DNA of 64,000 nucleotides. Source: an uncultured bacterium (lineage in GTDB: Bacteria > Planctomycetota > UBA8108 > UBA1146). A program made the translations under genes and the position numbers. The notes under the pieces were generated by a model that worked only from the letters and a program-made list of their open reading frames with translations, had not been told where the DNA came from and did not search any database. Of this stretch, positions 47,056-64,000 are shown in pieces (the stretch's first letter is position 1; each line of letters begins with the position of its first letter). The stretch is taken from positions 34,408-98,407 of the forward strand of contig CAJXMG010000006.1 in assembly GCA_913056395.1 (NCBI GenBank), read 5' to 3'.

Positions 47056-49263
47056 ATGAAGATGGTCCCCCACCTCCTCAGAATCGTCTATCTCTCTGTC
47101 ATCACCTGGTTGTGTCTGATGACCGGAAATCTGTACGCCCAAAACTGGACAATCAGTGGCACTGTGGTCGATGCGGTGGGAAACCCCATTTCCGGAGTCG
47201 ACCTCGATTTGATTGATCCACTCTCGCCTACCACCGTGATCCCCATCACAGGTGACACCTCTGCCGTCGACGGTAGCTTCCTGATTTCCATCAACACCAC
47301 CATTGCTGCAGGAAACTACTTACTTCAGTTTGAACCCAGCACCGCCCACCTTCCGGACGAAATCGACATCAACCTTAACGGCAATCTGAACATAGGGTCT
47401 CATGCATTGGCTTCAGGCTGGTTGATCTCCGGTACCGTAGTCAATACTGCCGGTACTCCCGCCTCAGGAGTGGATATCGATATTCGCGGTGATCAGGCGG
47501 GCTGGCTAGATCTCGTTGGCGATAACACCAACACTCTCGGTGAATTTTCCGTCGCTATTCCTGCGATCATCGATGAATACAGGATTACTTTTGCGGATAC
47601 TGCTTTAGACGCTGCCGTGTTTCCCATTGAAATAGATTTAGGCCTGCTTTTCGGAAATACGAACCTTGGAATCGTCGAAATGCCCATCGCTCATACCCTG
47701 ACAGGCTTGGTTGTCGATGAAGATGGGGTGCCGCTGCCAGGTATCGACATGAATCTTTATGACTCCGCAGGGGTAACCGTTGAACTTTTCAATGATGATA
47801 CCGACCTCCAAGGGGCCTTCAGTGTCGTTGTTCCTGAAGGAATCTTTACTGTCCGCCACAGGGATGTGAGTCCAACGCCCGGGATTGAAAGGGTGAACCA
47901 CGAAATCGCAGACCTGTCGATCTTCTCCAACCTCGACCTTGGAACCATCGTCATGCCGATTGGTTATCATGTTCAAGGGACCGTAGCCGGTTCTGCAGGA
48001 GAGTTGATCGCCGGAGCAGATTTTGACGCCAAGTACGCGGCGACGGGTCTGCCCATCTCTATTTCTTCAGATACCACGGATGTCACGGGTTCGTTCGATC
48101 TTCTTCTTCCAGAAGGAAATATCATTCTTGAAGTGGACCCTCCCCTGACGGGACAGGTCAGGGTCTCCAAGCAGATTCAGGTATCGATTGCCCCTGTCAG
48201 CCCTGTCAGCATTGGTCAGATCATTCTTGATGACGGAGTCACCGTCAGTGGTTCATTCACCGACTCCTCAGGGAATCCAGTTCCCTCAGTGGATGTCGAG
48301 TTCTACCTGTTCAGCACCGGACAGGTCTACGAGACTCTCCATGAAAATGGTAATCAAGCAGGAACCTTCAGTGCAAATGTACACACCAATGACTACAACT
48401 TGACCTTTACCCCCCCTGTTGCCAGCGGCCTCGGCCCCTTCTTTCTGATGAATGTCGAGTGTTATTCTGCGAGGGATCTGGGAACACTTGTACTCAGTCC
48501 TGCCGCAACCTTGTCAGGCAGTGTCACCAGCTCTGGTGTGGGACTGGAAGGCATTCAGATTACTGCGGTCGATATGGCCAGCGGCGCTACTCCGCCATGG
48601 GGCTCAACCACCACTCAGGCTGGTGGCGGTTACTCCCTCACTTTGACTGAGGGGATTTGGTCGGTGACGGCTACTGCTCCCCCTGGAACCGGGTTGACCG
48701 ATCTTTCGGAACTCAACCTTGCGGTTTCACAGGGAACAATGCTGAACTTTGAATTCCCCAACCTTGCTCCTTCCATCACCAACCTGACCTGCACCTTCGA
48801 CGATCCTGTGGTGAATCTGAGTTGGAGTAATGGAACAGTTTACGACTGGATCAGCATCACCAGGAACGGAATTCCTTTGACAACGATTACAGGTGATCAG
48901 GTGAGTTTTACAGACTCAATGCCCGGTTCAGGAGCAATGCAATACTCCGTGACCGGGAATGTATTGGGAGTAGATTCGCCTGAGGCATTTTGCGATCTCA
49001 CGATTCCAAGACCGTTTATCCGTTGCGATTCAGATCTGGGTGGAAACATCACCATATCGGATGCCATCAATGTGCTGAGTTACCTTTTTGCGTCCTATGG
49101 GACCACTTGCACAGATGCGATGGATTGCAATGATTCGGGAGCCATCAATATTGCTGACCCGGTGATGTTGCTGAACTTCCTTTTCGGCACAGGTCCCCTG
49201 CCTTCGGCTCCCTATCCCAATGCCGGGCAAGACCCCACCCCCGACAACCTCGACTGCAATTAA
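47056..49263 (+). CDS. Secreted protein with about 8 tandem carboxypeptidase-regulatory-like (CarboxypepD_reg / transthyretin-like) domains, an FN3-like domain and a C-terminal dockerin-like module.
   Basis: Start at ATG 47056 gives the signal peptide MKMVPHLLRIVYLSVITWLCLMTGNLYAQN; the ORF-track 46672 start lacks one. Repeated ISGTVVDAVGNPISGVDLDL / LTGLVVDEDGVPLPGIDMNL units. C-terminus FIRCDSDLGGNITISDAINVLSYLF...NDSGAINIADPVMLLNFLFGTGPLPSAPYPNAGQDPTPDNLDCN. Confidence 0.6.
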   Translation: MKMVPHLLRIVYLSVITWLCLMTGNLYAQNWTISGTVVDAVGNPISGVDLDLIDPLSPTTVIPITGDTSAVDGSFLISINTTIAAGNYLLQFEPSTAHLPDEIDINLNGNLNIGSHALASGWLISGTVVNTAGTPASGVDIDIRGDQAGWLDLVGDNTNTLGEFSVAIPAIIDEYRITFADTALDAAVFPIEIDLGLLFGNTNLGIVEMPIAHTLTGLVVDEDGVPLPGIDMNLYDSAGVTVELFNDDTDLQGAFSVVVPEGIFTVRHRDVSPTPGIERVNHEIADLSIFSNLDLGTIVMPIGYHVQGTVAGSAGELIAGADFDAKYAATGLPISISSDTTDVTGSFDLLLPEGNIILEVDPPLTGQVRVSKQIQVSIAPVSPVSIGQIILDDGVTVSGSFTDSSGNPVPSVDVEFYLFSTGQVYETLHENGNQAGTFSANVHTNDYNLTFTPPVASGLGPFFLMNVECYSARDLGTLVLSPAATLSGSVTSSGVGLEGIQITAVDMASGATPPWGSTTTQAGGGYSLTLTEGIWSVTATAPPGTGLTDLSELNLAVSQGTMLNFEFPNLAPSITNLTCTFDDPVVNLSWSNGTVYDWISITRNGIPLTTITGDQVSFTDSMPGSGAMQYSVTGNVLGVDSPEAFCDLTIPRPFIRCDSDLGGNITISDAINVLSYLFASYGTTCTDAMDCNDSGAINIADPVMLLNFLFGTGPLPSAPYPNAGQDPTPDNLDCN

Positions 49264-49308: not shown

Positions 49309-52300
49309 TCAGGGACAGTTCACCTGACTGGTGCAATTCAGTGAGTCAGCAGTAGTGTCAGTCCCACAATCAGGATATGGGGATGCGGGAACAGTTGTAC
49401 CTTCAAAGACAAAGGACAATGCCCCAACCACGTCAGCAAGATCAACGACACCATTGTCATTGAAATCAGTCGCAGATTCACAAGCGACCAATCCACTGCC
49501 AAAGAGGAAATCGAGGGTCTGAATCGGATCTGAGATATCAAAACTCCCATCCCCATTCGAGTCTCCCCTGCGGAAGATCGGCAAACTGACCGTCACCGAC
49601 ACTTCCACCGGGTTACTGGTCCCACCTGCACCTGTGGCTGTGACACTCGCGGTGAATACACCTGCTGCCGAATATAGGTGTGTCGGGTTTTGTTCAGTGG
49701 AACCCTGCCCATCTCCGAAAGACCAGTTCCAGGTCACACCGGCAACATTCGAGGTTGCAGAGAACTGGACCGGAGATCCCAACTCTACCGCTGAGAGATT
49801 GACGAATGCTTCCACTACAGGAATAGGGGCTGCCTGAACATCGACTAGGCAGGAAGATGGACTACTGGGCACGCCTGAAGACTCGACCGTCACTTCATAA
49901 GTGACGATTCCCGACGGAGCATTGGTGTCGGTGTAGGCCGTGATTCCACTGGGCAAAGTAGCAATTAAAACTCCATTCCGACTGACGGTCAGAGCCGAAC
50001 TCCCCGGTAAAACACTCCAGCTCAAATTAGCTGTCAAAGGTTGAGGACTGACACAGGTCAACCCCGAGACAGGGGCAGGAGGAACAGAAAGAGTGCATTC
50101 AGTTGCAGGAGCGATCAGACTTCCTGCTACTGCCACTACTGAATAATCCCTGAGGCCACCTGGTGGAGAAGTCTCCTGATAGAAGTTCGAACTTCCGGGC
50201 AGGGTTGCCAACAGAAGTCCATCTCGACTCACTTCCACCGCACTCAGTCCGTTTTCCACGGACCAGACCAGAGTCGCCGTTCCACCAGAAAACTGACAGT
50301 CCAGATTACTCACCGGCAGAGGATTGCGCGTCAATTGACAAACCTGTTCGTCACTCTGAACGGAAGAAACCACTCCCCTGATCGAGTAGGAGTAAGAGCC
50401 GGGATCGACCGCTTCAGTGTGGGTGGTCGAATTTCCGGGCAATGTGGCCACTTCGACGCCGTCCCGTCGAATCACGATGGATCCGTATGCCTCGCCATTG
50501 CTCCAGTTCAGGACGGCATTGCCTGCGGATGAGCCGCAACTGAACCCTGATGGAGCCAGAGGTTGAATCGTCTGATTACAAAGCACTGCTGAAGAGCTGA
50601 ACGATTGTAAAACAGAGATGACAGACCACTCATGGTTACCTGCTCCAGGATCATCCTGATATGAGGTGGAACTCCCCGGAAGTGTGGCAACAAGAATTCC
50701 ATTTCGGCGAATTTCCAGAGCGTCATAGGTGTGAGAATTAGTCCAGGACAAATTGACAAGGTTCTGGTCCGACACGCAGGTCAGTGAACCCACCGGACTC
50801 GGTGGAATAAAGACACCACAACTGGCAGAAGGACTGTCTGCACCAGCGGTCACCCCTCTGACAAAATAGGATTGGGCGCCCGCGCCCGGATTGACATCGG
50901 TCAGGCTGGTACTGTTCCCAGGCAAGGAGGCGATCACCACCGAGTTACGCAATACCTCCACACTGTCGTAAACCGCAGCGTTGGACCATGACAGCAGCAC
51001 ATCGGTTCCCTGAGGGGTGCACGAAAGATTCTCGGGTGCGGGAGGAGAAATCCCGATGGTACAAGCCACCGGCAGTGAGACCTGACTTCCCAAGACCGAG
51101 GAAACCTCAATTGTATGAGATCCCACGGTCAGCCCACCAATCGTGGTCGACGTTGCTGAACCTGCCAAAACCTGTGGAGCTCCGCCGTCTACCACCAGTT
51201 GAATCGAGTCCCAGGTTCCGGTCACCGTCCATGAAACAGCGACAGAGGCACCACTCACGGTACAGATCAGATCCTGCGGAGCGGTGAGAGCACCACCCAT
51301 GCATTCGATCAGAGCATCCACCAGTTGCTGACGTGTACTGACGCCGTTCACCAGTCCCCCGTTTTCATAGGAGACTCCCAACGTCAACTGGCCGCCGTTA
51401 TCCCGGAAGACCCCAACGTCGTATGCCGGAGACTGATTGGACTGAACCACAGTTGCTCCGGGATCCGCCTGGAGACGATCAACCCAGGAATTTTCTCCAG
51501 TGTAGGTCAGCGTCAGACCAGACAAGTCGCAGCCGGTTGCGAATGCTCCGGTCACCTCTCCGAGGTTGTCGGTGGTGCTTCCGTCCGAAAGGGCGGTGAT
51601 TCCAAACTCGGCGTGAATCGGTCGCTGGGGATCGAAGAACCAGGTGTCCCCTCCCTCGATGTAGAGAGCCTGACCACCTACACCGTTGGTCAGATAACTC
51701 ACCAGGGCGGCGGACTCCTCCACCGTAATCTGATGATTGTTGGGAAACATTCCAAGCATGACCCAGATCCGGTCAAAAACATCGAGATCATTAAATGCGA
51801 GCAGATTGGAAGTGAGGATGGCACTGCGGCCGGTCTGCACCAGGTCCGTCCCAAAGACGTTTCCGGAATCCACCGTTCCTGTTCCCGGGGACCAGATCAG
51901 ATCACGGGCATCGCCGATGAGAAACAGGGAACATTGGCGGGCAATACTGGGAGTCGCTCCCACAAACCCCTGAACTTCCCAGGAGTGCTGACCCGCCGGA
52001 ACGGAAAGATCCAGATATCCGGTGGCATTCCCCGCAAGTGTGGAGATCAGAACCCCATCCCTGCGAATCGTCACCGAGTCATAAACCTCTCCCGGTACCC
52101 AACTGAGCTGCACCCCCACACCAGATTCGGTGCAGGTGAAGTTCACCGGCCCAGCAGGGCCTCCCATGAGAGCCAACATATTGGAAAGGTTGACGCGGCC
52201 GTGTCCAAAGTTGTTGTCGAAGCCCGCCGGATCTTCACCCGCTGGGCCAACCTGATCATCAGCCCCGGCCTGAAGAATTTCCTGGGCCTGAGCGGCAGTC

Positions 52301-53763
52301 AAAGCAGGATCGTGCGACAGGATGACAGCCAGTGCTCCCGCCACCACGGGTGTGGCGGAAGAGGTTCCGTTGAATCCCCCGGTGTAATCGCCATTGACCA
52401 TACCGCCAGGACCGGCGATATCGGTGGTGGCCATCAGGACGCCCGGTGCCACGACTGTTTGCTGGGGCCCGGTGTTCGAGCCCCAGAAATTCTCCCCGTC
52501 ACAGGAAGTGGTGGATTTGATCTCGTCACAGGGGCTGGTCGCACCGACTGCAATCGTCTGGGCATAGGCAGCAGGGAAGGAAACCCCCGCACTCTCGTTG
52601 CCACTGGCAAAAACCAGCAAGCATCCAAGTCCCCCGCGTCCCGTTTGCAGGGCATAGTCCATCGTGTTCGATTCTGCGGTACTGGGTGCTCCACCCCCCC
52701 ATGAATTGGAGAGAATGTCCGCACCATTGTCCACAGCCCAGGTCAGTGAATCGATGATCCAGTCATTCTGGGTCCAGTGATTGCCAAAGCCCATTCGCAC
52801 CGGCTGGATTTGGGCATTCCACGCAACTCCGGCCACTCCGAGGTTGTTATTTCCTCTGGCGGCAGCAATGCCAGCACAGCCGGTTCCATGGGAATCATTG
52901 GTATCGCAGTTTCCAGGTATTCCCTCAGGGGAAGCCTGTATTGAGACGGAATCATGACCCGCCACCATATTCGGAGCGAGATCTTCATGGTCGACATCGA
53001 CACCCTCATCGAGGATGGCGATGGTCACATTGGCTCCCCCGGTTTGAATGCTCCAGGCGGTTTCTGCGGAAATGTCGACACCCGGTGTTCCCTGCTGGCC
53101 AGTGTTGTTCAGATACCATTGATTGGGATAGAAGGTGTCATTCGGGGCGACCATTTCTCCCAACCTCATGATGAAATTGGGACTGGCAGATTCGACTCCC
53201 GGGAAATTTTCGAAATCCAGAATCGCACTTTCGAAATCAACCGGATTTCCGTGGCGAACGAGAAACAGAGGTTTGGTTGACGGAAATTCGCGAACGATTT
53301 TGGCCCGGTATGCATCACGGAAGCGTTGATAAACTGCGGTTTCGTAACTGGTCAGGGTCACGAGTAATTCAGGACGTGGAATATGCAAACGGCCATTAAA
53401 CTCCAGGCATGGAGCAACCCAGCCCCCTGAAATCTCTCCCAGAGATTTCAACGAATCCATCGCCACACCTCTCTCGAGGGAAACAAGATGCAGACCATCA
53501 TATGGCATTGAATCGATGGATTTCACCAGTACACCTGTTGTGCCGGCAGTCAGCAATTCATGTATCGTTGTCGGTGCGTCGGTGTCAGTCGGCAGGTAGA
53601 ACGCGATGCGATCGGAGTCAGCAGGAAGCTTGACCTTGAGATCTCCAAATGTGAAGGACATGACCTTTCGCTTGGAGTCCTGAGCTCCGACAGAAACAGG
53701 AATCGATGCGGACAGCAACACGCCCAGCATGATCAATAGGATTCTGGATGTAATCTGAATCAT
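49309..53763 (-). CDS. Subtilisin-like S8 serine peptidase (1484 aa): propeptide, catalytic domain, about 8 Ig/FN3-like repeats, a PKD domain and a C-terminal dockerin-like module.
   Basis: Catalytic triad context ILDEGVDVDHEDL (Asp), HGTGCAGIAAA (His), GTSSATPVVAGALAVIL (Ser). PKD signature WNWSFGDGQGSTEQNPTHLYSAAGVFTASVTA. C-terminus FRRGDSNGDGSFDISDPIQTLDFLF...NDNGVVDLADVVGALSFVFEGTTVPASPYPDCGTD...NCP. Confidence 0.85.
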   Translation of the reverse strand: MIQITSRILLIMLGVLLSASIPVSVGAQDSKRKVMSFTFGDLKVKLPADSDRIAFYLPTDTDAPTTIHELLTAGTTGVLVKSIDSMPYDGLHLVSLERGVAMDSLKSLGEISGGWVAPCLEFNGRLHIPRPELLVTLTSYETAVYQRFRDAYRAKIVREFPSTKPLFLVRHGNPVDFESAILDFENFPGVESASPNFIMRLGEMVAPNDTFYPNQWYLNNTGQQGTPGVDISAETAWSIQTGGANVTIAILDEGVDVDHEDLAPNMVAGHDSVSIQASPEGIPGNCDTNDSHGTGCAGIAAARGNNNLGVAGVAWNAQIQPVRMGFGNHWTQNDWIIDSLTWAVDNGADILSNSWGGGAPSTAESNTMDYALQTGRGGLGCLLVFASGNESAGVSFPAAYAQTIAVGATSPCDEIKSTTSCDGENFWGSNTGPQQTVVAPGVLMATTDIAGPGGMVNGDYTGGFNGTSSATPVVAGALAVILSHDPALTAAQAQEILQAGADDQVGPAGEDPAGFDNNFGHGRVNLSNMLALMGGPAGPVNFTCTESGVGVQLSWVPGEVYDSVTIRRDGVLISTLAGNATGYLDLSVPAGQHSWEVQGFVGATPSIARQCSLFLIGDARDLIWSPGTGTVDSGNVFGTDLVQTGRSAILTSNLLAFNDLDVFDRIWVMLGMFPNNHQITVEESAALVSYLTNGVGGQALYIEGGDTWFFDPQRPIHAEFGITALSDGSTTDNLGEVTGAFATGCDLSGLTLTYTGENSWVDRLQADPGATVVQSNQSPAYDVGVFRDNGGQLTLGVSYENGGLVNGVSTRQQLVDALIECMGGALTAPQDLICTVSGASVAVSWTVTGTWDSIQLVVDGGAPQVLAGSATSTTIGGLTVGSHTIEVSSVLGSQVSLPVACTIGISPPAPENLSCTPQGTDVLLSWSNAAVYDSVEVLRNSVVIASLPGNSTSLTDVNPGAGAQSYFVRGVTAGADSPSASCGVFIPPSPVGSLTCVSDQNLVNLSWTNSHTYDALEIRRNGILVATLPGSSTSYQDDPGAGNHEWSVISVLQSFSSSAVLCNQTIQPLAPSGFSCGSSAGNAVLNWSNGEAYGSIVIRRDGVEVATLPGNSTTHTEAVDPGSYSYSIRGVVSSVQSDEQVCQLTRNPLPVSNLDCQFSGGTATLVWSVENGLSAVEVSRDGLLLATLPGSSNFYQETSPPGGLRDYSVVAVAGSLIAPATECTLSVPPAPVSGLTCVSPQPLTANLSWSVLPGSSALTVSRNGVLIATLPSGITAYTDTNAPSGIVTYEVTVESSGVPSSPSSCLVDVQAAPIPVVEAFVNLSAVELGSPVQFSATSNVAGVTWNWSFGDGQGSTEQNPTHLYSAAGVFTASVTATGAGGTSNPVEVSVTVSLPIFRRGDSNGDGSFDISDPIQTLDFLFGSGLVACESATDFNDNGVVDLADVVGALSFVFEGTTVPASPYPDCGTDTTADSLNCTSQVNCP
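49713..51393. repeat. Intragenic repeats encoding about 8 Ig/FN3-like ~95-aa domains within the S8 peptidase gene.
   Basis: Recurrent units of the form C(T/S).SG..V.LSW....YD..E..RNG.L.ATLPG.ST.Y. They generate the antisense ORF 51325..52704. Confidence 0.5.
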
Positions 53764-54191
53764 GCGATCTCCACCTATCTTCCCAAATCAACAGGGCATC
53801 AATACATGCCCCTGCGACCGACACACAAACCTTCAGCCGCGTATTTTTTGAATAAACGAGGTGAACCCGCAAATGCACCTGGAAAGGTGTGCCCTTTATC
53901 AAAAAAGGTCAGACTTCTCGGGAACCTTCGTCAGACTGAATTTTACGCCCTATAACACGCCTGTACACATTTGATCATCTGGCATTGCAAAGTGACTCAT
54001 GCCTTACATGGCTTACCTGTCATTAATGCACTCAATTTGAGTCTCAGGGATCCCATTTTCCCGATGAATCTGTTAACAAGTAATACAGCACCATGGAATG
54101 AACGATTCTCCATCGATTAGAAGTGGTGCTCGACGACGAATCCAATAGGTCAAGGATCGACTGCTCGAGTTTCCAAAGTTGAAGGGAAGCT

Positions 54192-55499
54192 ATGATTTTC
54201 GAAGAACAAGTTGAACGTCAATTCCACTGTGAAACGTGGACTCCTTTCAAATCTTCCCGTCTGGTCGCAGCCTCAAGAGTCGGGATACTCTCTGTCCTTC
54301 TCGCGGTTGGTAGCCTGCTTTCCGGTTGTGGAGGAGGTGGTGGTACAGCAGGTGGTCCGGCACCCATCATCGACTTCTCCAAGAAACGGGATGTCCTCAA
54401 TCCTGCTATTGTCGTGCCCCTCTTCCAGGACCGAAATACTGCAGGCTCTACCAATCCTGTCGATTTCGATTACCTGGAAGTCGACAGTCCCAGCTTCGTG
54501 GATGATGCTGGAAGACCTTCTGACCGTGGCATGCTTTTTTATGAAGCGACGGATGGGAACGGAACCAACTCTATCGGTCTTGTCACGTCAGCGGATTACG
54601 ACGATTTCAGCGTCCCAGTGATCAATCGGGCTCAGGTGCTGGTGGCCGGCGACCTTCCTCAAGTGGAGTTTACGCAAACAGGTCTTTTTGAAGACGCAAT
54701 TGCGGTATCCGATCCTAGTGTCATCGTCGACAAAGGTGTCCCCCTTGGTGCTGCAGGCAGATATCGAATGTGGATCGAAGGGGTTTACTCTTCCGCGGGC
54801 AACCTCAGCGCAATCCTCACCACCTCTTCCGCAGATGGGCAAAACTGGGAACCACCTCAACTTTGTGTCGGTTTGGAACTCGGCCCCGAATTTGGAGATG
54901 TGATCCGGATCGTCGATGCAGACGTGGTCAAAGTCGACGAACTCGGCGAGGCATACCGCATGATCTTTGAAGTGATTCGATCAGACCTCTCGTCAGTATT
55001 CGGCATGGCAACCACGTCTGATATCAATGGAGTCAATTGGACCGTCACGGATGGGGTCTTGACCGGAACCTCAGCTGGTCCTGTCTTCAGCGGTGGCCCG
55101 GGAGGCTTTGACGACGGTTCTGTTCAGTCTCCGGGACTGGGAATCGAGCGTAACGACAATGGCGACATCGTCGAATGGCATCTCTTTTACGAAGGAAAAC
55201 CCAGCGATTTTCTGGCGAACAACGACTCCCTGATCGGTTACTCTAACAGTGTTGACGGGTTTTCCTGGAGTGGTTACGCGGTGCCGGTCATCACGGCGAC
55301 CAGTGACCTGATTCAACCCACGGCCTTCGACTCCGATGATGTCAAACATCCCGATGTTTTCATCCGTATCCCCGACCCCCCTTCAACGGACCCCCTCAAC
55401 CCCGCCGACCTCCATCGATTCATTCTTTATTACAGTGGAGATTCGGTGTTTGAAGACCCCAATGAGGTCAACAGAATCGGTCTGGGGACCGCAGAATAG
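54192..55499 (+). CDS. Hypothetical secreted lipoprotein, possibly beta-propeller glycoside-hydrolase-like.
   Basis: Lipobox LLAVGSLLSGCGGGGG. Recurring (W/Y)hh(Y/F)EG motifs (YRMWIEGVY, YRMIFEV, WHLFYEGKP) resemble 5-bladed propeller hydrolases. Weak assignment. Confidence 0.4.
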   Translation: MIFEEQVERQFHCETWTPFKSSRLVAASRVGILSVLLAVGSLLSGCGGGGGTAGGPAPIIDFSKKRDVLNPAIVVPLFQDRNTAGSTNPVDFDYLEVDSPSFVDDAGRPSDRGMLFYEATDGNGTNSIGLVTSADYDDFSVPVINRAQVLVAGDLPQVEFTQTGLFEDAIAVSDPSVIVDKGVPLGAAGRYRMWIEGVYSSAGNLSAILTTSSADGQNWEPPQLCVGLELGPEFGDVIRIVDADVVKVDELGEAYRMIFEVIRSDLSSVFGMATTSDINGVNWTVTDGVLTGTSAGPVFSGGPGGFDDGSVQSPGLGIERNDNGDIVEWHLFYEGKPSDFLANNDSLIGYSNSVDGFSWSGYAVPVITATSDLIQPTAFDSDDVKHPDVFIRIPDPPSTDPLNPADLHRFILYYSGDSVFEDPNEVNRIGLGTAE

Positions 55500-55542: not shown

Positions 55543-57693
55543 TTGGGAGTTGTCTCAGTTGGGGAGATTGTCGTGAGTTTCCAAAATCCGGTCCATCCCG
55601 AAAAATCGATTACCGAAGGCCGCAGCCCAAGGCGTGGGGCCTCCGGTTCCAGAGCCGCTTTCCCGGTTGCCGTGCTTTTTGGAATCTGGATTTTGACTCT
55701 CAACTCCGGTTGTGACAGCAACCGGGAATCGGCAACCCCTGTTAAAGGTTCCGTCTCCATCATCGATGACGTTGCCTCAAATTCCTCTCCCCATCAAATC
55801 CAACTGCCATCACCGACAACGATCATTGGAAATCTCGCACCTGCAGAGGAAGACCTTCATGCACCCAGATTCATGGGATTGAAACATCTCGTCGCCGGAG
55901 ACAAAGAGCTGATGCTGACCTGGGAGTCAGCTATCGATGATGTCTCTCCTGATAGCGCCATCTCCTATCATGTATTTCTCTCTGAGCGATCTGGAAAACA
56001 ACAGTTTGATGCTCCCCCCCAAATGATTGTGCCGGCGGGTTCACAGTCCTGTCGCCTCACTGGACTCGAAAATGGGGTCACTCTTCACGTCGTCGTTCGT
56101 GCAGTGGATGCCTCGGGCAAGGCTGATTCCAACGAGGCAGAATGGGCCGCAACCCCTAATCCGGTTCTGTTCGTGGACGCATCGGTCAATGAATCCGCAG
56201 ATGGAGAAACTCCTCTAGCCGCTCTGAAATCCATCGACGAAGCCATCGGCGCGGCAATTGGATTGGCTGGAGTCAATGTCTACATCGCCGAAGGAGAGTA
56301 TCAGGAACAGATCCTCCTCTTCGATGGGATGAGCCTTTACGGCGGATTTCAAAGTGGATTCGACGCCTTTCCTGATCCCGTGATCCGGCAAACTCGGCTT
56401 CAGGGAACATCAGGGAAAGACACCCTGATTCTGCCCCCTGGAAACCACCTGACTGTGATCGATGGACTGAACTTTACCGGTGAAAACAGCGCTCGCCGGG
56501 CTATCGTCGCCGACGATTGTGTCCTGCAGATTTCCCATTGCCAGATTTCCGGTTTTGCCGACAAAGGCATACAGATCGAAACCGATACGGACGACGGCGG
56601 AGAAGCGAGCGGATCACTCCTTTTTTGTGACGTCCGGAACAATCGTGGCGATGGATTACGGATCGAAGGATTTGTCGACTTGGTCCTCCGTGAATGCAGA
56701 TTCACCGGAAACGGGCAGAGCGGCATCTCTTCCCCCTCTCTCCAACCTCGGCACGGCGAGAAAACCAGACTTGATCTGAACCGGGTACTCGTCGCAGACA
56801 ATGGAGACATCGGCATCAACATCCGCATTTCCGAACCAGATGCAGGAGATCCTGAGGATCCACCCAGAGTTCGGCTGGGACTCTTCGGGGTGGAGTCCTC
56901 CGGAAATGACGATCACGGGATGGGCTTCGACCTCCGATACTCTGAAGATCAGAACGTGGACATGCGAATTCGTATCGAGTACTGCCTATTGTCAGACAAT
57001 CGAAAATCTGGCGTGTACCTCGATGCGGATGCGATCGGAGATTACTCCATCAGCCATTCCAACTTTGAGGGCAACCGTGGAGACAGTGCACTGAAACTTT
57101 CCGGTGATGCCACCGGGGCCATCATTCATGTTCGTGATTGCCTTTTCCCTGCAGGACAGGGTTACAGCTTGCTTTACCGCGGCTCGGGTCTCGTCAATGT
57201 GATGGAAAGTGAACTCGCCTCGGTCGGGCCTGACAACAAACCACTCCAACGGGAGGCCACAGGGATCGTCACTGTTCAGGGGCAGTCAGTCATGGAATCG
57301 ATAGATCCTTCCATGAAACATTGGGAGAAGATTCTGGAATCTCCCGGAAAGCAGCAGCCATCCCATGCGTTGGATTCCCTTCCTGCCCCCCCCAAGCAGA
57401 GAAGCGCAGGTATCGTCGGAATCGTTCCCGGACCGGGAAAGCTGTCGCAGAACAACCCTCTTCAGTGGAAGGTGCTCCTGAGTGACGATTCCATCACCCC
57501 GGAAATCAGCGCAGCCGCCGATGGTAATGCCTTTCCACTGGTCAACTCCAAAAGTGGTGAGATCTTGACGATTGAACCCTCCCAGGACATTGGAGAATTC
57601 CGCAAACTGATCCTTCGGGTGACCGTTCCCGAACAATCGGGATCAACCGAGCAGAGCCACCGTTTCGAATACGAACCTGCGGGAGATCGGTGA
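55543..57693 (+). CDS. Right-handed parallel beta-helix repeat protein (pectate-lyase fold) with an N-terminal FN3-like domain; lipoprotein.
   Basis: Signal/lipobox ...ILTLNSGC. Tandem PbH1-like repeats (GFADKGIQIE, NNRGDGLRIEG, GNGQSGISS, DNGDIGINIR, DNRKSGVYLD, GNRGDSALKLSG). Confidence 0.6.
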   Translation: MGVVSVGEIVVSFQNPVHPEKSITEGRSPRRGASGSRAAFPVAVLFGIWILTLNSGCDSNRESATPVKGSVSIIDDVASNSSPHQIQLPSPTTIIGNLAPAEEDLHAPRFMGLKHLVAGDKELMLTWESAIDDVSPDSAISYHVFLSERSGKQQFDAPPQMIVPAGSQSCRLTGLENGVTLHVVVRAVDASGKADSNEAEWAATPNPVLFVDASVNESADGETPLAALKSIDEAIGAAIGLAGVNVYIAEGEYQEQILLFDGMSLYGGFQSGFDAFPDPVIRQTRLQGTSGKDTLILPPGNHLTVIDGLNFTGENSARRAIVADDCVLQISHCQISGFADKGIQIETDTDDGGEASGSLLFCDVRNNRGDGLRIEGFVDLVLRECRFTGNGQSGISSPSLQPRHGEKTRLDLNRVLVADNGDIGINIRISEPDAGDPEDPPRVRLGLFGVESSGNDDHGMGFDLRYSEDQNVDMRIRIEYCLLSDNRKSGVYLDADAIGDYSISHSNFEGNRGDSALKLSGDATGAIIHVRDCLFPAGQGYSLLYRGSGLVNVMESELASVGPDNKPLQREATGIVTVQGQSVMESIDPSMKHWEKILESPGKQQPSHALDSLPAPPKQRSAGIVGIVPGPGKLSQNNPLQWKVLLSDDSITPEISAAADGNAFPLVNSKSGEILTIEPSQDIGEFRKLILRVTVPEQSGSTEQSHRFEYEPAGDR

Positions 57694-57697
57694 AAAG

Positions 57698-59194
57698 ATG
57701 CTGATCAAAACCCGCCTCCAACTCCTGTTCGCATTTCTGATCATCGTCTTTCTGTCCACTGGTGGATTGATGATTGGAGCGTTGCAGGATCTGGAAAAAG
57801 CGGTGACGGAAGGCTCTTCGGGAAGATTGCGTTTGATCCAATCGGGACAGATCCGTGACCAGGTTCTTTCTGCGAGTGCAGAGGTGGAAGATCTCGCCAA
57901 CTGGAACGCTGAAGACCGAAATCGATTTTTTGGGCTGCTCGATTCGTGCAAAGAGACGATCCAGCAGATGCGTCTCGGACTGACTGGAGATAATGATCCC
58001 CTGAAAGGAACGATTGAGTCCCTTTCCAGACCTGTAACCGATTTCGGTCGAGCTGTGACCCGTGCACTGAGGTATCTGGATGAAGAAGGGCCGGGTTCCC
58101 GTCGACTGAACCTCCCCAGAAATTGGCTGAAGACCCGATTGATACCGGAGATAACCGAATCACTTCAGGAACTCGAGCAACAACTCCAGTCCCGGTTGGC
58201 AATTTTGGACAAACTCGCTGTCGTCAATTATCAGCGAATCAAGCTCGTCTTTTTGGGTACAGGGGTGGCCCTGATTCTTTTGGGAATTATCTTTTTCTAC
58301 CTGGTTCGCAGATGGATCGTGACACCACTCGAGCTCCTCTCTGCTGCAACACGAGAGATCTCTTCTGGAAAATACGGTGAAACCATTTCCATCACTTCGA
58401 ATAGTGAGATCGGTCAATTGGCCAGAGATGTGGAATCGATGTCGGAAGAAATTTCCAGGGCCCAATCTCAACTGGTTGACCGGGAAAGACTCGCCGCAGT
58501 CGGAGAGATGACCGCCACCATCGCCCACAACATCAGGAATCCACTCGGCAGTATTCGGGCACTGGCCCAGGGTCGATTAAGATCAGACGGAGGCTCTGAT
58601 CCTGATATGTCGATGAAGACGATCCTCGAAACGGTGGATCGTGCAGACAGGTGGCTGAAAGACCTTCTGAAGGGGTTGAAGCCGATTCAGCTGACCTACG
58701 CCGAAGCGCAACTGCACTCACGGCTTCCCGCATTATGCGAAGCGGTCTCAGGATATGCCGATAAAAGGCAGGTGAGCGTAAATTGCCAAATCACCGGAAC
58801 CCTTCCCGCTGCCAGAATTGATGAACGAAAAATCGAGCAATCGATTCTTGTACTCCTGAATAATGCGATTGAGTCCTGTAATCCCGGCGGTGTGGTATCA
58901 TTGACCGGAGGAAGTAGCGGTAATGAAATTTTCATCGAAGTGCAAGACGATGGCCACGGAATGTCGGCAGAGGTTCTTGCCCAACTTTTCAAACCCTACT
59001 TCACCACCAAGAAATCCGGCCTTGGTTTGGGGCTCTCCCTAACCCAAAGGATTGTCGTTGGGCACGGTGGGAAAATCGAAGTGGAGTCGGAATCCGGAAA
59101 AGGCAGTCGCTTCCTGGTAACGATTCCCACCGATTCACAAAATGCCTCCGAACCGAAAGGAACAGAACATGGCACAAATTCTGATCCTCGATGA
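57698..59194 (+). CDS. Sensor histidine kinase (2 TM, HAMP, HisKA, HATPase_c).
   Basis: H-box MTATIAHNIRNPLGSI, N-box LLNNAIESCNPGG, G-boxes DDGHGM and GLGLGLSLTQRIVVGHGGKIEV. TM helix LFAFLIIVFLSTGGLMIGAL and a second at ~aa 190. Confidence 0.8.
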   Translation: MLIKTRLQLLFAFLIIVFLSTGGLMIGALQDLEKAVTEGSSGRLRLIQSGQIRDQVLSASAEVEDLANWNAEDRNRFFGLLDSCKETIQQMRLGLTGDNDPLKGTIESLSRPVTDFGRAVTRALRYLDEEGPGSRRLNLPRNWLKTRLIPEITESLQELEQQLQSRLAILDKLAVVNYQRIKLVFLGTGVALILLGIIFFYLVRRWIVTPLELLSAATREISSGKYGETISITSNSEIGQLARDVESMSEEISRAQSQLVDRERLAAVGEMTATIAHNIRNPLGSIRALAQGRLRSDGGSDPDMSMKTILETVDRADRWLKDLLKGLKPIQLTYAEAQLHSRLPALCEAVSGYADKRQVSVNCQITGTLPAARIDERKIEQSILVLLNNAIESCNPGGVVSLTGGSSGNEIFIEVQDDGHGMSAEVLAQLFKPYFTTKKSGLGLGLSLTQRIVVGHGGKIEVESESGKGSRFLVTIPTDSQNASEPKGTEHGTNSDPR

Positions 59195-60554
59195 TGAGAT
59201 TCCACTTCTTCAATCCCTCACCCTGGAATTGGGCAGAGGAGGCCATCGATGCCTTCCTGCAGAAACAGGAGCAGAGGCACTGAGGATCATCAAATCCGAA
59301 TCCATCGATATGGCCATCCTTGACGTTCAGTTGCCTGACATCGACGGATTGGAAGTCCTTCGAAGTCTTCGTCAGGAGCTCCCTGAAGTGCCCGTTCTCA
59401 TGGTCACTGCTTTCGCTTCTGTAGACAGTGCTGTTGAGGCGATGAAAGAAGGTGCCCTCGACTATCTGGAAAAGCCTCTGGATCTCGAAGAACTGAATCT
59501 GGTTGTCGAAAGAGAGCTTGAAAACGCTGAAATGAGAAGGCTTGTTGGAGCTCACGAGAGGGTCTCAGCACTCAGTGAACGCAAGACCATCGTCGGTGAA
59601 TGCGCCCCCATTCAACAGGTTCTTGAGGTCGTCGAGCAACTTTCCCAGATCCCCATCGACAAAGCGGCAGAGTTACCCACCGTGTTGATCGGTGGAGAAA
59701 CCGGTGTCGGCAAAGACCTTCTTGCCCGATACATTCATGAAAAAGGCAGTCTGTCCAGATTCCCTTTCCTGCAGGTGAACTGCAGCGGACTCCCCAAGGA
59801 CTTGATTGAAAGTGAACTTTTCGGACACGAGAAGGGCTCATTTACCGGTGCATCCCAACAAAAACAGGGACTCTTTGAAGTAGCTGCTGGTGGCACCATA
59901 TTTCTCGACGAGATCGGTGACATGCCCCTTGAGATGCAGACCAAACTCTTGAATGTCCTCGAAACGAAAAAGGTTCGCAGGGTCGGCGGCACCCGTGAAT
60001 ATTCCGCTGACGTCAGAATCATTGCCGCGACAAACCAGAATCTGGAACAGGCCTCCAGAGATGGCTCCTTCAGGTCAGACCTCTACTATCGCTTGAAGGT
60101 CGTCTCTATCACACTCCCGGCCCTGCGAGACCGGGGTGCTGACCTCGACCTGCTGGTTGATCACTTTGTGGATATTCACGCGAAAAGATACCGCAAGGAT
60201 CACCTCCAGATTCCAGACTCTGTCCGTGAGGAGCTCAGAAGTTACAGTTGGCCAGGAAATGTTCGGGAGTTGGCTCACACCATCGAGAGGATGGTCCTGA
60301 TCTCATCCGGGGACACCTTGGCTTCACCCGCTCTCAATCTCCAGGGTGAAGGGGCTGTGGTCGTCAGAGGTCCCATGGCTCTCGAAGACATTCAATTCGA
60401 CTTCGAAAAGGATTCGTGCACTCTTGCAGAGGTGGAGACTCACCTGATTCAACAAGCTCTCGATTTTAAGGATGGAAATGTATCGGAAGTCGCCAGGTTG
60501 CTGGGCCTGACCCGAGGGGCACTCCGTCACCGGCTCGACAAGCGCGGTTTATAG
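59169..60554 (+). CDS. Sigma-54-dependent response regulator (NtrC family: REC, AAA+ sigma-54 activator, Fis-type HTH).
   Basis: REC ILILDDE...DMAILDVQLPDIDG. Walker A GETGVGKDLLARYIH. GAFTGA-like ESELFGHEKGSFTGA. C-terminal HTH EVARLLGLTRGALRHRL. Start at ATG 59169 overlaps the kinase end. Confidence 0.85.
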   Translation: MAQILILDDEIPLLQSLTLELGRGGHRCLPAETGAEALRIIKSESIDMAILDVQLPDIDGLEVLRSLRQELPEVPVLMVTAFASVDSAVEAMKEGALDYLEKPLDLEELNLVVERELENAEMRRLVGAHERVSALSERKTIVGECAPIQQVLEVVEQLSQIPIDKAAELPTVLIGGETGVGKDLLARYIHEKGSLSRFPFLQVNCSGLPKDLIESELFGHEKGSFTGASQQKQGLFEVAAGGTIFLDEIGDMPLEMQTKLLNVLETKKVRRVGGTREYSADVRIIAATNQNLEQASRDGSFRSDLYYRLKVVSITLPALRDRGADLDLLVDHFVDIHAKRYRKDHLQIPDSVREELRSYSWPGNVRELAHTIERMVLISSGDTLASPALNLQGEGAVVVRGPMALEDIQFDFEKDSCTLAEVETHLIQQALDFKDGNVSEVARLLGLTRGALRHRLDKRGL

Positions 60555-60563
60555 TCAGGAGAT

Positions 60564-60593
60564 TGGCCAAATATCGCCCCTGATGGCCAAATA
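60564..60593 (+). promoter_or_regulatory. Direct repeats (T/A)TGGCCAAATA x2, with a related GGCTATAAATGGCCAGG at 60623..60639. Candidate upstream activator sequence for the adjacent NtrC-like regulator.
   Basis: ttggccaaata (60564) and atggccaaata (60583) lie about 170-190 bp upstream of the candidate sigma-54 promoter. Confidence 0.3.
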
Positions 60594-60757
60594 CAACCAA
60601 CCCTGAACCTGCATTTCCCCGATGGCTATAAATGGCCAGGCGGGAGAGCCCATACACCTCTTCGAACGCCCTCCCAACAAATCCTAAGCCTCACCATATT
60701 AGGGCTTTAGGACATCCCAACCAGTCTCCAATGATTTACAATCCATACCAAGTGTTT

Positions 60758-60773
60758 ATGGACTCATATTTGC
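60758..60773 (+). promoter_or_regulatory. Candidate sigma-54 (-24/-12) promoter for the glycosyltransferase cluster.
   Basis: TGGactcatatTTGCg has GG and GC elements with the canonical TGG-N8-TTGC spacing. It lies about 20-45 bp upstream of the possible starts of the 60795 gene and directly downstream of a sigma-54 activator gene. Confidence 0.4.
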
Positions 60774-60794
60774 GACGTATTCATTTACATTCAT

Positions 60795-62102
60795 TTGAAT
60801 ACCTCGATTGGAAGATCCATGACCTCGGCGAAGAGTGATTCCCCTGCTTTAAGGGACTCCCCCTCCAAACCCCTGCGAAGAGTGGCTTTTTATAGCCATG
60901 ATGGGTTTGGACTGGGTCATTTTCGCCGTTGCCTTCTCCTCGCCTCCCGTATCCAGGAACATCTCGAAGCGGTCGAAATATTGCTGATCACCGGCTCTGC
61001 CAAGGCCACATTTTTCAAACTGCCCCCCCGTTGCCGTGTTGCAGTGATGGAACCCATGACCAAGGATTCCTCCGGTGAATACATCCCTCGAAATCCGCAG
61101 ATCGACACACTTACCGCATTCCGTCGCCGCCGAGACAAACTTCGCAAAGAGATCCTCGAGTTCGACCCTGACCTGCTCATCGTCGATCACGTTCCTACAG
61201 GGTTGAGTGGAGAGCTGATCCCACTCCTGCCTGATCTGAAAGTACGTGGCACCCAACTCGCAATAGGATTGCGGGACATCATCGACGAAAGTGAGACCGT
61301 ACAACAGTCTTGGAAAAAATCCGGGGCCAATCTCCTCGTCGAATCTCTCTATGACCATATTTGGGTCTACGGAAGTAAAGCCGTCTTTGATTTGGGCAAG
61401 CTTTACAACTTGAGCGAAACCACGAATCAACGAATCGATTATCTCGGCTATCTGAAAAGAATCAGTCTGTCAAAACTGCATACGGACTTCATCGACTCCC
61501 TCCCGTTAAGAAGAAATTCCCAAAAGAAAATCGTATGTGTTGCGGGAGGTGGCGAAGATGGAAATCCACTTGGAGAAACCTTTCTCCAAACACTGAGTAA
61601 TTTTCCAAACAAGTATGTGGGAACTCTGGTAACTGGCCCACACCTTGACAGAGTCGATGCCAGAAATCTGATCGACCGATTCCATCAGTACAACAACCTT
61701 GAGATAATGCGATTCACAACCCACCTTGAAGATCATCTGAGAGCCGCTGACGTTATCGTCTCCATGGGTGGCTACAATGCGACTCTCGAAGCGATCGCTG
61801 TCCGCAAGCCGACTATCATCATTCCCAGGGTTTCTCCCAGAAAAGAACAGTGGATCAGAGCCCAGAAGTTTTCGCAGAAGGGCCTGATCAACATGATCCA
61901 CCCCGATGAATTGACCACTGAAAAGCTGCTGGAAGCGATTGAAACAGGTCTTGAATCCCCCCATTTGAAAACCGTGGAAGAATTGGGACTCAACATGGAC
62001 GGAATCGGCAACTTTTTATCCAGAGTTGACGAAATCCTTTCAACCACGATCCGCAAAAGGAAAGAAGAAGACGATGTCAATGACACCCTCCTCAGAGCAT
62101 GA
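60795..62102 (+). CDS. Glycosyltransferase (GT-B fold, COG4671/UDP-glycosyltransferase-like).
   Basis: VAFYSHDGFGLGHFRRCLLLASRI is a Gly-rich N-terminal motif typical of this predicted glycosyltransferase group. C-terminal GGYNATLEAIAVRKPTIIIP is a GT-B C-domain motif. Confidence 0.55.
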   Translation: MNTSIGRSMTSAKSDSPALRDSPSKPLRRVAFYSHDGFGLGHFRRCLLLASRIQEHLEAVEILLITGSAKATFFKLPPRCRVAVMEPMTKDSSGEYIPRNPQIDTLTAFRRRRDKLRKEILEFDPDLLIVDHVPTGLSGELIPLLPDLKVRGTQLAIGLRDIIDESETVQQSWKKSGANLLVESLYDHIWVYGSKAVFDLGKLYNLSETTNQRIDYLGYLKRISLSKLHTDFIDSLPLRRNSQKKIVCVAGGGEDGNPLGETFLQTLSNFPNKYVGTLVTGPHLDRVDARNLIDRFHQYNNLEIMRFTTHLEDHLRAADVIVSMGGYNATLEAIAVRKPTIIIPRVSPRKEQWIRAQKFSQKGLINMIHPDELTTEKLLEAIETGLESPHLKTVEELGLNMDGIGNFLSRVDEILSTTIRKRKEEDDVNDTLLRA

Positions 62103-63336
62103 CCAGCCTCTCAAGGTCGGATACATCCTTAAGATGTTTCCCAGACTCTCTGAGACCTTCATTCTCAATGAAATTCTCGAACTTGAGAGACAGGGCGTTG
62201 AAGTTGAAGTCTTCAGCCTGATGGCTCCTGGTGATGGCAGGTTCCATGGCAGTCTCAGTGAACTGAAATTGACCATTGAGTACGTTCTCAGAGAAAAGCC
62301 TGAGAGCTATTGGGACAAGGTGTCCAAGTTTCCTCCTGGCGTCGTCCCGAGCATGGATCGCTGGCAACGTGCAGTCGACTTTCTTCGTGAACACGCCATT
62401 CCCAAAGAACTCGATATGCTTCTGAGAGCCGTATACATCGGTGCAGAAGCGCGCATGCGCGGCGTGCAACATTTCCACGCACATTTCGCCACCATTTCGA
62501 CTCGAATGGCAGCGTTGGTGAACATCCTCTACGACATTCCCTTCTCCTTCACATGTCATGCCAAGGACATCTTCCGTGAAACGGTCAACAGAAACCTGTT
62601 CAGAGAGCTCACGGATCTTTCCGCATTCTCTATCACGGTGAGTGACTTCAATCGTCAATACATCCTTGACCACACTCCGGGAATTGATGCAGACAAAGTG
62701 AAGCGGCTCTACAACGGTATCAATATGGATTTCTTTGAAGTTCCAGCAGACCGTAGTCCTCTTAATTCCAAGCCCACAAAGATCATCAGCGTTGGTCGCC
62801 TTGTGCCAAAAAAGGGTTTCGACATTCTTCTGCAATCCATCAAGCTCCTCTCGGAGGAAGGAATGGACCTGCAAGTCGACATTATTGGCGATGGTGATGA
62901 TCAGGAAAAACTGCATCAAATGAATCAAAGACTTGGGTTGAGTGACAAGGTGCGATTCCTTGGTGCACTCCCCATTGAGGAAGTTCGACGTCATTGCTCA
63001 GAAGCAACAATGATGGCTTTGGCATGCATTCCTGATGCAGATGGAAACATGGATGCACTGCCCACTGTTCTTCTGGAGGCTCTCGCATTGGATTTGCCTG
63101 CGGTGTCAACAACCTTGACCGGTTGCCCCGAGATTCTTGCAGAAGGAACAGGAGAATTGGTCGAGCCCGGTGACGCCAGAGCTCTTGCAGATGGGATCAA
63201 GTCACTGAAAAGCCGTGTGGATTCTAAAGAATGGAAAATTGGATCTGCGAGGAGCAGGGCAGAAAACCTCTTCAATCTGTCAACCAACGTTGCAACCCTC
63301 AAATCCCACTTTGAAAACAGTGCACGTCGGGGGTAA
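62074..63336 (+). CDS. GT4-family glycosyltransferase (WcaL-like).
   Basis: N-terminus LKVGYILKMFPRLSETFILNEI is typical of this GT4 subgroup. C-terminal GRLVPKKGFDILLQSI and ...LEALALDLPAVST (E-x7-E-like). Start at ATG 62074 or 62080, overlapping the upstream gene. Confidence 0.75.
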   Translation: MSMTPSSEHDQPLKVGYILKMFPRLSETFILNEILELERQGVEVEVFSLMAPGDGRFHGSLSELKLTIEYVLREKPESYWDKVSKFPPGVVPSMDRWQRAVDFLREHAIPKELDMLLRAVYIGAEARMRGVQHFHAHFATISTRMAALVNILYDIPFSFTCHAKDIFRETVNRNLFRELTDLSAFSITVSDFNRQYILDHTPGIDADKVKRLYNGINMDFFEVPADRSPLNSKPTKIISVGRLVPKKGFDILLQSIKLLSEEGMDLQVDIIGDGDDQEKLHQMNQRLGLSDKVRFLGALPIEEVRRHCSEATMMALACIPDADGNMDALPTVLLEALALDLPAVSTTLTGCPEILAEGTGELVEPGDARALADGIKSLKSRVDSKEWKIGSARSRAENLFNLSTNVATLKSHFENSARRG

Positions 63337-63341
63337 TCAGG

Positions 63342-64000
63342 TATGAATCTGAAGAACTTCTCCTATATATGCGCCGACCCGGGGATTCCTGTCCCCGGTC
63401 AAAAGGGAGCCAGCATTCATGTGGCTTCCATTTGCAAGGCGTTCAGCCAACTTGGCTTGGGAGGAGATCTCTACACAATTCGACCTGAAGGAGAAAAACT
63501 TGGCACGATTCCAATTCATGCCATGGAACTCCCCCCCCGCAAAAAACACAAATCGGTCGAAGAAAGAGAAAGCCGTCTTTTTCTCTCCAGGCTCGACAAC
63601 ATCGATGAAATTCACGATTTCGTATACGAGCGATACAGCCTCTGGCACCCGGGTGGTCTTTATCTGGCAAGGAAACATCAGGTTCCCTTCGTATTGGAGG
63701 TGAACAGCCCACTCGCACTGGAGTCCAAAAAATACAGGCAGCTCGCCAATGAGAATCTGGCCACAGGCCTCTCTCGTCTGCTTCTCAGGGAAGCAGACGT
63801 GGTCGTCTGTGTTTCAAAAGAAATTCAGGACTGGGTGGTGTCAGAAAGAGGCCACCACGAGGGTGTGCTTTTGGTCCCCAATGGTGTCGATCAGGACGTC
63901 TTCAAACCTTCGACAACACAACGTCCCGATTCACTGCCCCCTGAAAACGTTCCCCTGATTGGGTTCACCGGCACCTTCAGGCCATGGCATGGAATCCAGG
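63342..64000 (+). CDS. GT4-family glycosyltransferase, 3'-truncated by the window end.
   Basis: ATG at 63342 gives MNLKNFSYICADPGIPVPGQKGASIHVASICKAFSQLGLGGDLY..., a Glyco_trans_4-like N-domain. Open to the window end. Not in the ORF track because there is no stop. Confidence 0.6.

Follow-up and report, generated by a model that had tools for sequence, protein, structure and literature searches.

The subject of this analysis is the 264-nt gap (60555-60818) between an activator gene and a glycosyltransferase gene in a 64-kb stretch of DNA from an uncultured marine planctomycete (contig CAJXMG010000006.1; hereinafter the window, to which all positions refer). Upstream of the gap, on the + strand, lies a sensor operon that opens with a lipoprotein gene (54192..55499; 435 aa, lipobox LLSGC), followed by the genes for a secreted protein with Fn3 and right-handed beta-helix domains (55543..57693; synteny and Pfam, with Beta_helix at E=1.2e-10 and a weak fn3 match), a membrane sensor histidine kinase (57698..59194; two transmembrane segments and the Pfam domains HAMP, HisKA and HATPase_c) and an NtrC-type sigma-54 activator, that is, a bacterial enhancer-binding protein (bEBP; 59169..60554). 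The gap itself contains three dyads of the form TGGC-N8-GCCA, two with one mismatch (TGGCCAAATATCGCCC, 60564..60579, and TGGCCAAATACAACCA, 60584..60599) and one exact (TGGCTATAAATGGCCA, 60623..60638), a conserved bipartite TAA-N19-TTA box (60685..60709) and, on the + strand, a -24/-12 element (TGGACTCATATTTGC, 60759..60773), so that the box is located between the putative enhancer and the putative promoter. Downstream, also on the + strand, are the genes for a GT-B glycosyltransferase with a GT28/GT1-like C-terminal domain (60819..62102; Pfam Glyco_tran_28_C, E=3.8e-14), which includes a further exact dyad (TGGCTTTTTATAGCCA, 60883..60898), an EpsE-/WcaL-like GT4 glycosyltransferase (62074..63336; assigned by Pfam, NCBIfam matches below the cut-offs, and an exact-sequence look-up) and a second GT4 glycosyltransferase (63343..64000) that is cut by the window end. 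An earlier note on this DNA, made from the sequence alone, had placed the activator stop at 60554 and three consecutive glycosyltransferase genes behind it, the last one truncated, in agreement with the open reading frame (ORF) listing and with the Pfam and gene calls, respectively. The same note described a beta-helix lipoprotein upstream of the kinase; the beta-helix is evident from the Pfam match, whereas the protein can be considered only a possible lipoprotein (LNSGC; the gene caller places the start at 55573).

Scanning the activator protein against species-representative genomes yielded 17 orthologous loci, all labelled as metagenome-assembled genomes (MAGs). These are marine MAGs, with source names that are mostly Planctomycetota, Planctomycetia or Planctomycetes. 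The identity of the activators in these loci is 58-97%, below which it falls sharply to ∼40%, the level of paralogs. The gene order lipoprotein, beta-helix protein, kinase, activator, gap, GT28-like, GT4, GT4 is conserved in all 17 loci within the reach of the contigs; the lipoprotein gene is syntenic in 15 of them, and the other two loci end before the gene. The gaps were aligned with MAFFT (17 sequences, namely the window and 16 orthologs, with L018 omitted).

The -24/-12 element is conserved in this alignment. At 60759-60773 on the + strand, the 15-mer TGGactcatatTTGC presents the TGG-N8-TTGC register, with the GG (60760-60761) and the GC (60772-60773) exactly 10 nt apart, as the earlier note had recognized when it proposed sigma-54 spacing in front of the glycosyltransferase genes. 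The GC precedes the ATG at 60819 by 46 nt, and the position of the element predicts a transcription start at ∼60785 and a 5' untranslated region (UTR) of ∼34 nt. The chance of encountering one TGG-N8-TTGC on the correct strand within a 264-nt gap is ∼0.02. Among the orthologs, a -24/-12 motif on the coding strand precedes the GT28-like gene in all 17 gaps, with 17 exact matches altogether (two of these in L018, and GGG in place of TGG in L011), compared with ∼0.47 expected in the 5492 nt of the 17 gaps (Poisson P ∼5e-21). In 16 of the 17 loci, the motif is found 43-84 nt before the glycosyltransferase start codon; the exception is L018, with a gap of 1082 nt and the proximal copy 274 nt before the start codon. 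In the alignment of 17 gaps, TGG and ATTTGC are invariant, against a mean column identity of 48%, and 9 of the 18 invariant columns fall inside the 15-mer, which had been pre-specified by the earlier note (hypergeometric P ∼9e-9). A position weight matrix (PWM) built from non-redundant promoter sites recovers 60759-60773 as the sole strong site in the window and gives no second strong site in 10 kb of the downstream operon. A PWM match at 55176 was discarded as a further sigma-54 site because it lacks the GC. Neither a sigma-70-like promoter nor a + strand terminator was detected around the gap. The element is more than a chance occurrence because of its conservation across orthologs, not because of the bare pattern, and we predict with high confidence that it is a real, conserved sigma-54 promoter.

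The dyads begin 10-30 nt past the activator stop and are present in every ortholog examined, mostly in two to four copies with at most one mismatch. The earlier note had reported two direct repeats and a related sequence at this place. The copies are indeed there, TGGCCAAATA occurring exactly twice in the window (60564 and 60584, 20 bp apart) and GGCTATAAATGGCCAGG at 60624-60640; these, however, are not direct repeats in nature but the left halves of TGGC-N8-GCCA dyads, three of which, 16 bp each, follow the activator stop. Dyad 1 has its center 189 bp before the -24 GG, at ∼-213 relative to the predicted start, a position (189-190) that is occupied in 11 of the 17 orthologs at no more than one mismatch, with weaker copies at the aligned place in the others. 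The center of dyad 2 is 20 bp from that of dyad 1 and 169 bp before the GG, and its position (167-169) is shared by 15 of the 17 orthologs; for dyad 3, centered at 130 bp, the position (127-130) is shared by 13 of the 17. A fourth dyad, at 108-109 bp, is found only in L013, L014, L016 and L017. The DNA between the dyads has diverged among the orthologs whereas the distances from the dyads to the GG are nearly constant. The spacings between the dyads, ∼21, 40 and 20 bp, correspond to ∼2, 4 and 2 helical turns, and therefore, all the dyads are on one face of the helix, an arrangement that, judging from the sequence, would be anticipated in an enhancer on which a bEBP ring is nucleated. Thus, at least two helically phased dyads are located within the ∼80-250 bp upstream of the promoter that is characteristic of bEBP enhancers. 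No other clustered dyads were found in the window, and a literature search turned up no paper containing TGGC-N8-GCCA.

Between the dyads and the promoter, the TAA-N19-TTA box has its center ∼62 bp before the -24 GG, or near -88 relative to the predicted start. The length and position of the box are fixed in all 16 orthologs examined, and the alignment columns T131, A132, A133, T153 and T154 are invariant or nearly so. The box is A/T-rich in most of the orthologs, with 47% A+T in the window. From its position only, it may be a place where the DNA bends or where an architectural protein of the IHF/HU type binds.

The activator has the domain order of the NtrC-family bEBPs, namely REC, AAA+ Sigma54_activat and a Fis-type helix-turn-helix (HTH) domain (Pfam Response_reg, 5e-26; Sigma54_activat, E=3.8e-64; HTH_8, 7e-11). 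Its Walker A motif is GETGVGK, and the loop that contacts sigma-54 is GSFTGA in the clade of the window and the canonical GAFTGA in L009-L017. GSFTGA is listed among the activity-compatible variants, and Desulfovibrio bEBPs with GSFTGA have mapped targets (PMC4641369). The C-terminal HTH NVSEVARLLGLTRGALRHRL, including the recognition helix, is near-invariant across the orthologs, which appears to fit the conserved dyad operator. The closest solved relatives of the activator are Aquifex NtrC1 and NtrC4, and its scores fall below the NCBIfam equivalog cut-offs (AtoC, 390 vs 714 bits; NtrC, 386 vs 559; ZraR, 328 vs 760). The kinase likewise has AtoS and ZraS as the best NCBIfam matches, far below the cut-offs (181 vs 646 bits for AtoS). 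The kinase, with its HAMP, HisKA and HATPase_c domains, adjoins the activator as a cognate kinase is expected to, and the two genes overlap: the activator ORF opens at 59142, and the called start, 59169, overlaps the kinase stop.

The genes that the predicted promoter would control extend beyond the window. Searching for the exact sequence of the first GT4 protein identified a 96.9-kb contig, L083, that overlaps the window over 11 927 bases with 14 differences, and the operon beyond 64000 was read from this near-identical contig (L083:12424-21202). After the promoter, the order of the encoded proteins in L083 is the GT28-like glycosyltransferase (427 aa), the two GT4 glycosyltransferases (420 and 385 aa), an MsbA-like ABC exporter (606 aa; ABC_membrane and ABC_tran), two APH-fold kinases (440 and 363 aa), an AlgE-like outer-membrane porin (600 aa; Alginate_exp, E=2e-28) and a Beta_helix/NosD protein (911 aa), the second beta-helix protein of the locus. 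The genes overlap or are tightly spaced. No internal sigma-54 site was found in the operon and the terminator-like sites do not exceed the shuffle expectation, and therefore, the predicted regulon is a single operon of at least eight genes. The PDB relatives of the GT28-like protein are UDP-glycosyltransferases, such as YjiC and OleD. By domain content, the operon pairs glycosyltransferases with export components of both the inner and the outer membrane, as expected of an export operon, and its product looks like a secreted or envelope glycan. The earlier note had called these genes an exopolysaccharide glycosyltransferase cluster; the exporter, the kinases, the porin and the beta-helix protein strengthen the case for a secreted or envelope glycan, of which an exopolysaccharide would be a plausible form. 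No gene for a priming transferase, polymerase, Wzx/Wzy, synthase or PCP/OPX protein is found in the stretch of the operon that was seen. The export parts of the operon are an unusual combination for a glycan pathway.

Taken together, the synteny of the locus, the domains of the encoded proteins and the sequence motifs, which are conserved and fixed in their geometry, make it likely that the gap at 60555-60818 serves to control a sigma-54-dependent operon, in the following way. The histidine kinase (57698-59194) would phosphorylate the adjacent NtrC-type activator (59169-60554), dimers of which would bind the dyads at 60564, 60584 and 60623 and form the AAA+ ring. Looping of the DNA, probably aided by the TAA-N19-TTA box (60685-60709), would carry the ring to the sigma-54 RNA polymerase that forms a closed complex at 60759-60773, ATP hydrolysis would open the promoter, and transcription would begin near 60785, with a transcript that spans the operon of at least eight genes. 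The circuit proposed in the earlier note, with a kinase, a sigma-54 activator, an enhancer, a promoter and glycosyltransferases, is thus the reading best supported by the domains, the synteny, the invariant -24/-12 bases and the fixed upstream sites.

Several observations weigh against this interpretation. With regard to the upstream sites, dyads 1 and 2 of the window carry one mismatch each, and it is only through adjacency and co-conservation that the dyads are assigned to the neighboring activator, an assignment in which we have good confidence. The promoter could then be real, with the dyads bound by another bEBP or by a repressor, encoded at some other place, and the adjacent activator acting chiefly on targets far from this locus. 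Indeed, the assignment of a bEBP to its target by adjacency is a heuristic, and TGGC-N8-GCCA at no more than one mismatch is somewhat over-represented over the whole window (45 found vs 27.7 expected), so that the motif is not unique to the gap. This alternative is, nevertheless, unlikely: the dyads, the activator and the promoter occur together in all 17 genomes, the recognition helix of the HTH is near-invariant in parallel with the dyad, dyads of this size are typically read by dimers of Fis-type HTH domains, and there are no other dyad clusters or sigma-54 sites in the window or in the 10 kb downstream.

With regard to the promoter, the bare pattern TGG-N8-TTGC has 11 matches in the window, compared with 9.7 ± 2.9 in shuffled sequences, and TGG-N6-ATTTGC is likewise found at the chance rate, so that counts of either pattern were rejected as stand-alone evidence. 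On its own, TGG-N8-TTGC is statistically uninformative. The extended sigma-54 consensus is TGGCACG-N4-TTGCW. In the window, the -24 region is TGGACT rather than TGGCAC, the -12 region ends in G rather than in A or T, and TGGACTC....TTGCG matches, by a hand count, ∼7 of the 12 positions of the extended consensus. The distant orthologs are closer to the canonical TGGCAC-N5-TTGCW than is the window copy (for example, TGGCATTACATTTGCT and TGGCCCCGCATTTGCA), and on the same count, L010 and L012 (TGGCATTACATTTGCT) match ∼10 of the 12 positions. No ORF with an RpoN box was detected in six frames of the window or of 84 loci, which is uninformative on the whole genome. Sigma-54 is functional in Planctomycetes, to judge by the complementation of Salmonella with the rpoN gene of P. 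limnophilus that is cited in PMC3035269, and cultured members of the group are known to have rpoN. Finally, read-through from the activator gene is possible because no terminator was found.

Together, the chance rate of the pattern, the weak match of the window copy and the lack of a terminator between the activator and glycosyltransferase genes are what could be expected if TGG-N8-TTGC were not a working promoter, the operon being transcribed by read-through or from a promoter for a housekeeping sigma factor and the conserved blocks serving otherwise; moreover, planctomycete sigma-70 promoters are poorly defined, so that the sigma-70 scan could miss one. On the other side, the GG, the GC and the T-tract are invariant at the exact spacing in 17 species while the flanks diverge, every ortholog gap has a match where less than one was expected in total (17 exact matches and the GGG variant), the distance from the promoter to the dyads is fixed, and a sigma-54 activator is encoded directly upstream of the gap. 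A non-functional element accordingly appears quite improbable. Least credible of all is the explanation that the conserved blocks act in RNA, be it as a leader, as a small RNA, or as a terminator or some structure in the 3' UTR of the activator mRNA: a hairpin is possible over the TAA-N19-TTA box in the window (CCTAAGCC/GGCTTTAGG), in L003 and in L013, and the sigma-54-like site of L018 is followed by a stretch that ends in a hairpin, but only the TAA and TTA of the box are constant, the inner bases are not consistently complementary across the 16 orthologs (for which reason a hairpin or terminator was rejected as the reading of the box and kept as a minor rival), a search of 60300-61000 against Rfam gave no match even at E≤1, the predicted 5' UTR is not more stably folded than shuffled sequences (z=-0.21), and palindromic dyads at a fixed distance from the promoter are a property of DNA geometry.

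Apart from the cluster in the gap, several other sites resemble parts of the predicted enhancer and promoter. The exact dyad at 60883, inside the first glycosyltransferase gene (codons V-A-F-Y-S-H), is exact in the clade of the window and in L005, and has one mismatch in most of the other orthologs. In the window clade, this dyad follows the -24 GG by 130 bp, the same distance by which dyad 3 precedes the GG, but its distance to the promoter varies among the orthologs (-115 to -153), and its serine codon is AGC in every ortholog where the dyad is detected. It is probably a by-product of the conserved VAFYSH coding sequence; a role as a downstream activator site is uncertain. Another exact dyad, TGGCAGAATTTCGCCA at 46795-46810, is isolated, without a nearby sigma-54 site, and was treated as a chance match rather than as a member of the regulon; it falls within the 46672-49263 ORF, in what is probably a non-coding leader. 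Autoregulation of the sensor operon was considered as well and set aside, there being no dyad cluster or sigma-54 site upstream of it (53764-54191).

Some of the orthologous gaps contain additional elements. In the distant orthologs L009-L017, the stretch that separates the promoter from the TAA-N19-TTA box contains a second conserved box, ATCGACAnnTCGTGAC followed by (G/A)TACA, at ∼20-40 nt before the TGG (L013:8577-8600, for example); the counterpart of this second box in the window clade is weak (CCAGTC...TACA). This box may be a site for an additional regulator. The 1082-nt gap of L018 (L018:8500-9500, CAZSDP010000015.1; the activator ortholog is ∼64% identical) contains two regulatory modules. 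The first one consists of dyad-like sites and a sigma-54-like TGGTCCGTGACTTGCT (8730-8745), after which comes a stretch of ∼80 nt that ends in a GC-rich hairpin and T9 (about 8800-8838); the second one, with dyads at 9006, 9028 and 9171 and a promoter at 9205, precedes the glycosyltransferase gene. By analogy with the logic of LuxO and Qrr, the ∼80-nt stretch is a candidate for a sigma-54-dependent small RNA.

The two exported proteins of the sensor operon may bear on the signal to which the predicted sigma-54 circuit would respond. The lipoprotein (54192..55499), which the earlier note did not describe, has no match in Pfam or NCBIfam, nor in a sequence search of the PDB. Its AlphaFold model, made from 20 sequences (pLDDT 82, pTM 0.82), is a five-bladed beta-propeller, and the top Foldseek matches of the model are the BT_4094 glycosidase, beta-1,2-mannobiose phosphorylase and GH43/GH62 enzymes (E 1e-9 to 1e-7), with GH130 phosphorylases and GH159 glycosidases matched in the same range of E-values. 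The lipoprotein that opens the sensor operon is thus predicted to have a glycoside hydrolase (GH) fold, that of the GH43/GH62/GH130 glycosidases or phosphorylases. Of its 32 detected homologs, none bears a functional name, and among those with a source name, all but one come from Planctomycetota or Planctomycetia. Both this lipoprotein and the Fn3/beta-helix protein look glycan-active and are encoded in the kinase operon, which hints at a glycan-related signal for the kinase. A further step, which is speculative and on balance doubtful, is that the locus is a clade-specific glycan feedback circuit in which the two proteins process or bind an extracellular glycan and signal to the kinase, which in turn would induce the unusual export route. 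If so, the sensed glycan might be the own product of the pathway, the APH-fold kinases might be enzymes that modify or terminate the chain, and the switch would depend on sigma-54 and on a TGGC-N8-GCCA enhancer that had not been described before.

The upstream neighborhood of the sensor operon (24660-53763) encodes large secreted proteins. These include an S8 subtilase with PKD domains and many repeats (49309-53763, - strand), a CarboxypepD_reg repeat protein (46672-49263), an endonuclease I and lamin-tail protein (44766-46721, - strand), an FG-GAP protein (28351-30114) and a di-haem peroxidase with a dockerin domain (26526-28094, - strand). Judged by eye, several of the proteins in this region end in dockerin-like D/N-rich repeats.

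The significance of the predicted sigma-54 circuit lies in its being a specific, testable regulon for an uncultured marine lineage of Planctomycetota that has no characterized sigma-54 regulon. The prediction consists of one kinase-activator pair, one operator of defined geometry, one promoter and one glycan operon of at least eight genes, and the operator together with the promoter is short enough for testing in a heterologous host. Surface glycans shape the particle attachment and aggregation of marine bacteria, which makes such a switch an ecologically plausible control point. The understanding of sigma-54 regulation as such is unchanged by this locus.

Comparison with the known systems places the mechanism within classical NtrC-type, enhancer-dependent activation: the architecture is textbook and the mechanism is ordinary. 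As in NtrB/NtrC-glnAp2, AtoS/AtoC, ZraS/ZraR and Aquifex NtrC1/NtrC4, a kinase is combined with a REC/AAA+/Fis-HTH activator. Again as in NtrC-type systems, several dyads on one face of the helix are located ∼100-200 bp upstream of a -24/-12 promoter, with an A/T-rich element in between, where IHF usually acts. The differences are that the window proteins, although their best NCBIfam and PDB matches belong to these systems, reach no equivalog cut-off, that the operator is TGGC-N8-GCCA as opposed to the TGCACC-N5-GGTGCA of NtrC, that the target is a glycan pathway rather than nitrogen, acetoacetate or zinc genes, and that dyads for autoregulation were not seen in front of the sensor operon.

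In the syp locus of Vibrio fischeri, SypF/SypG activate sigma-54 promoters before glycosyltransferase and export genes (PMC10162802, PMC12369376). That locus, however, has four sigma-54 promoters and the further regulators SypE/SypA, compared with a single promoter and one long operon here, belongs to an unrelated phylum and differs in the enhancer sequence and the export machinery. The syp promoters reportedly have a conserved enhancer. Operons for exopolysaccharide and biofilm formation under two-component bEBPs with nearby enhancers recur in in silico sigma-54 regulons that cast this factor as a controller of the cell exterior in general (Desulfovibrio vulgaris, PMC4641369; PMC12316311), and a cross-phylum survey predicts sigma-54 promoters in Planctomycetia, including some before glycosyltransferases (PMC12316311), but the clade, the operator and the operon of the window are not described in these surveys.

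In the PrsK/PrsR/PrsT group, a transmembrane kinase, an NtrC-like activator and a lipoprotein are found together, usually near glycosyltransferases, and the target genes are preceded by a conserved upstream motif and a -24/-12 motif (Haft et al. 2006, PMC1569441). The grouping of kinase, NtrC-like activator and lipoprotein is common to that system and the window locus. The window proteins, however, are below the PrsK and PrsR cut-offs (TIGR02916, 108 vs 300 bits; TIGR02915, 329.5 vs 502.6 bits), with scores lower than those for the generic AtoC and NtrC models, and no exosortase or PEP-CTERM gene is found among the genes examined. The PrsT lipoprotein is a tetratricopeptide repeat protein as opposed to the GH-fold beta-propeller predicted here, and PrsK/PrsR target single genes for PEP-CTERM proteins as opposed to an operon of enzymes and export components. 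By analogy of function, then, SypF/SypG and PrsK/PrsR/PrsT are the closest counterparts of the window locus, which is a member of neither family.

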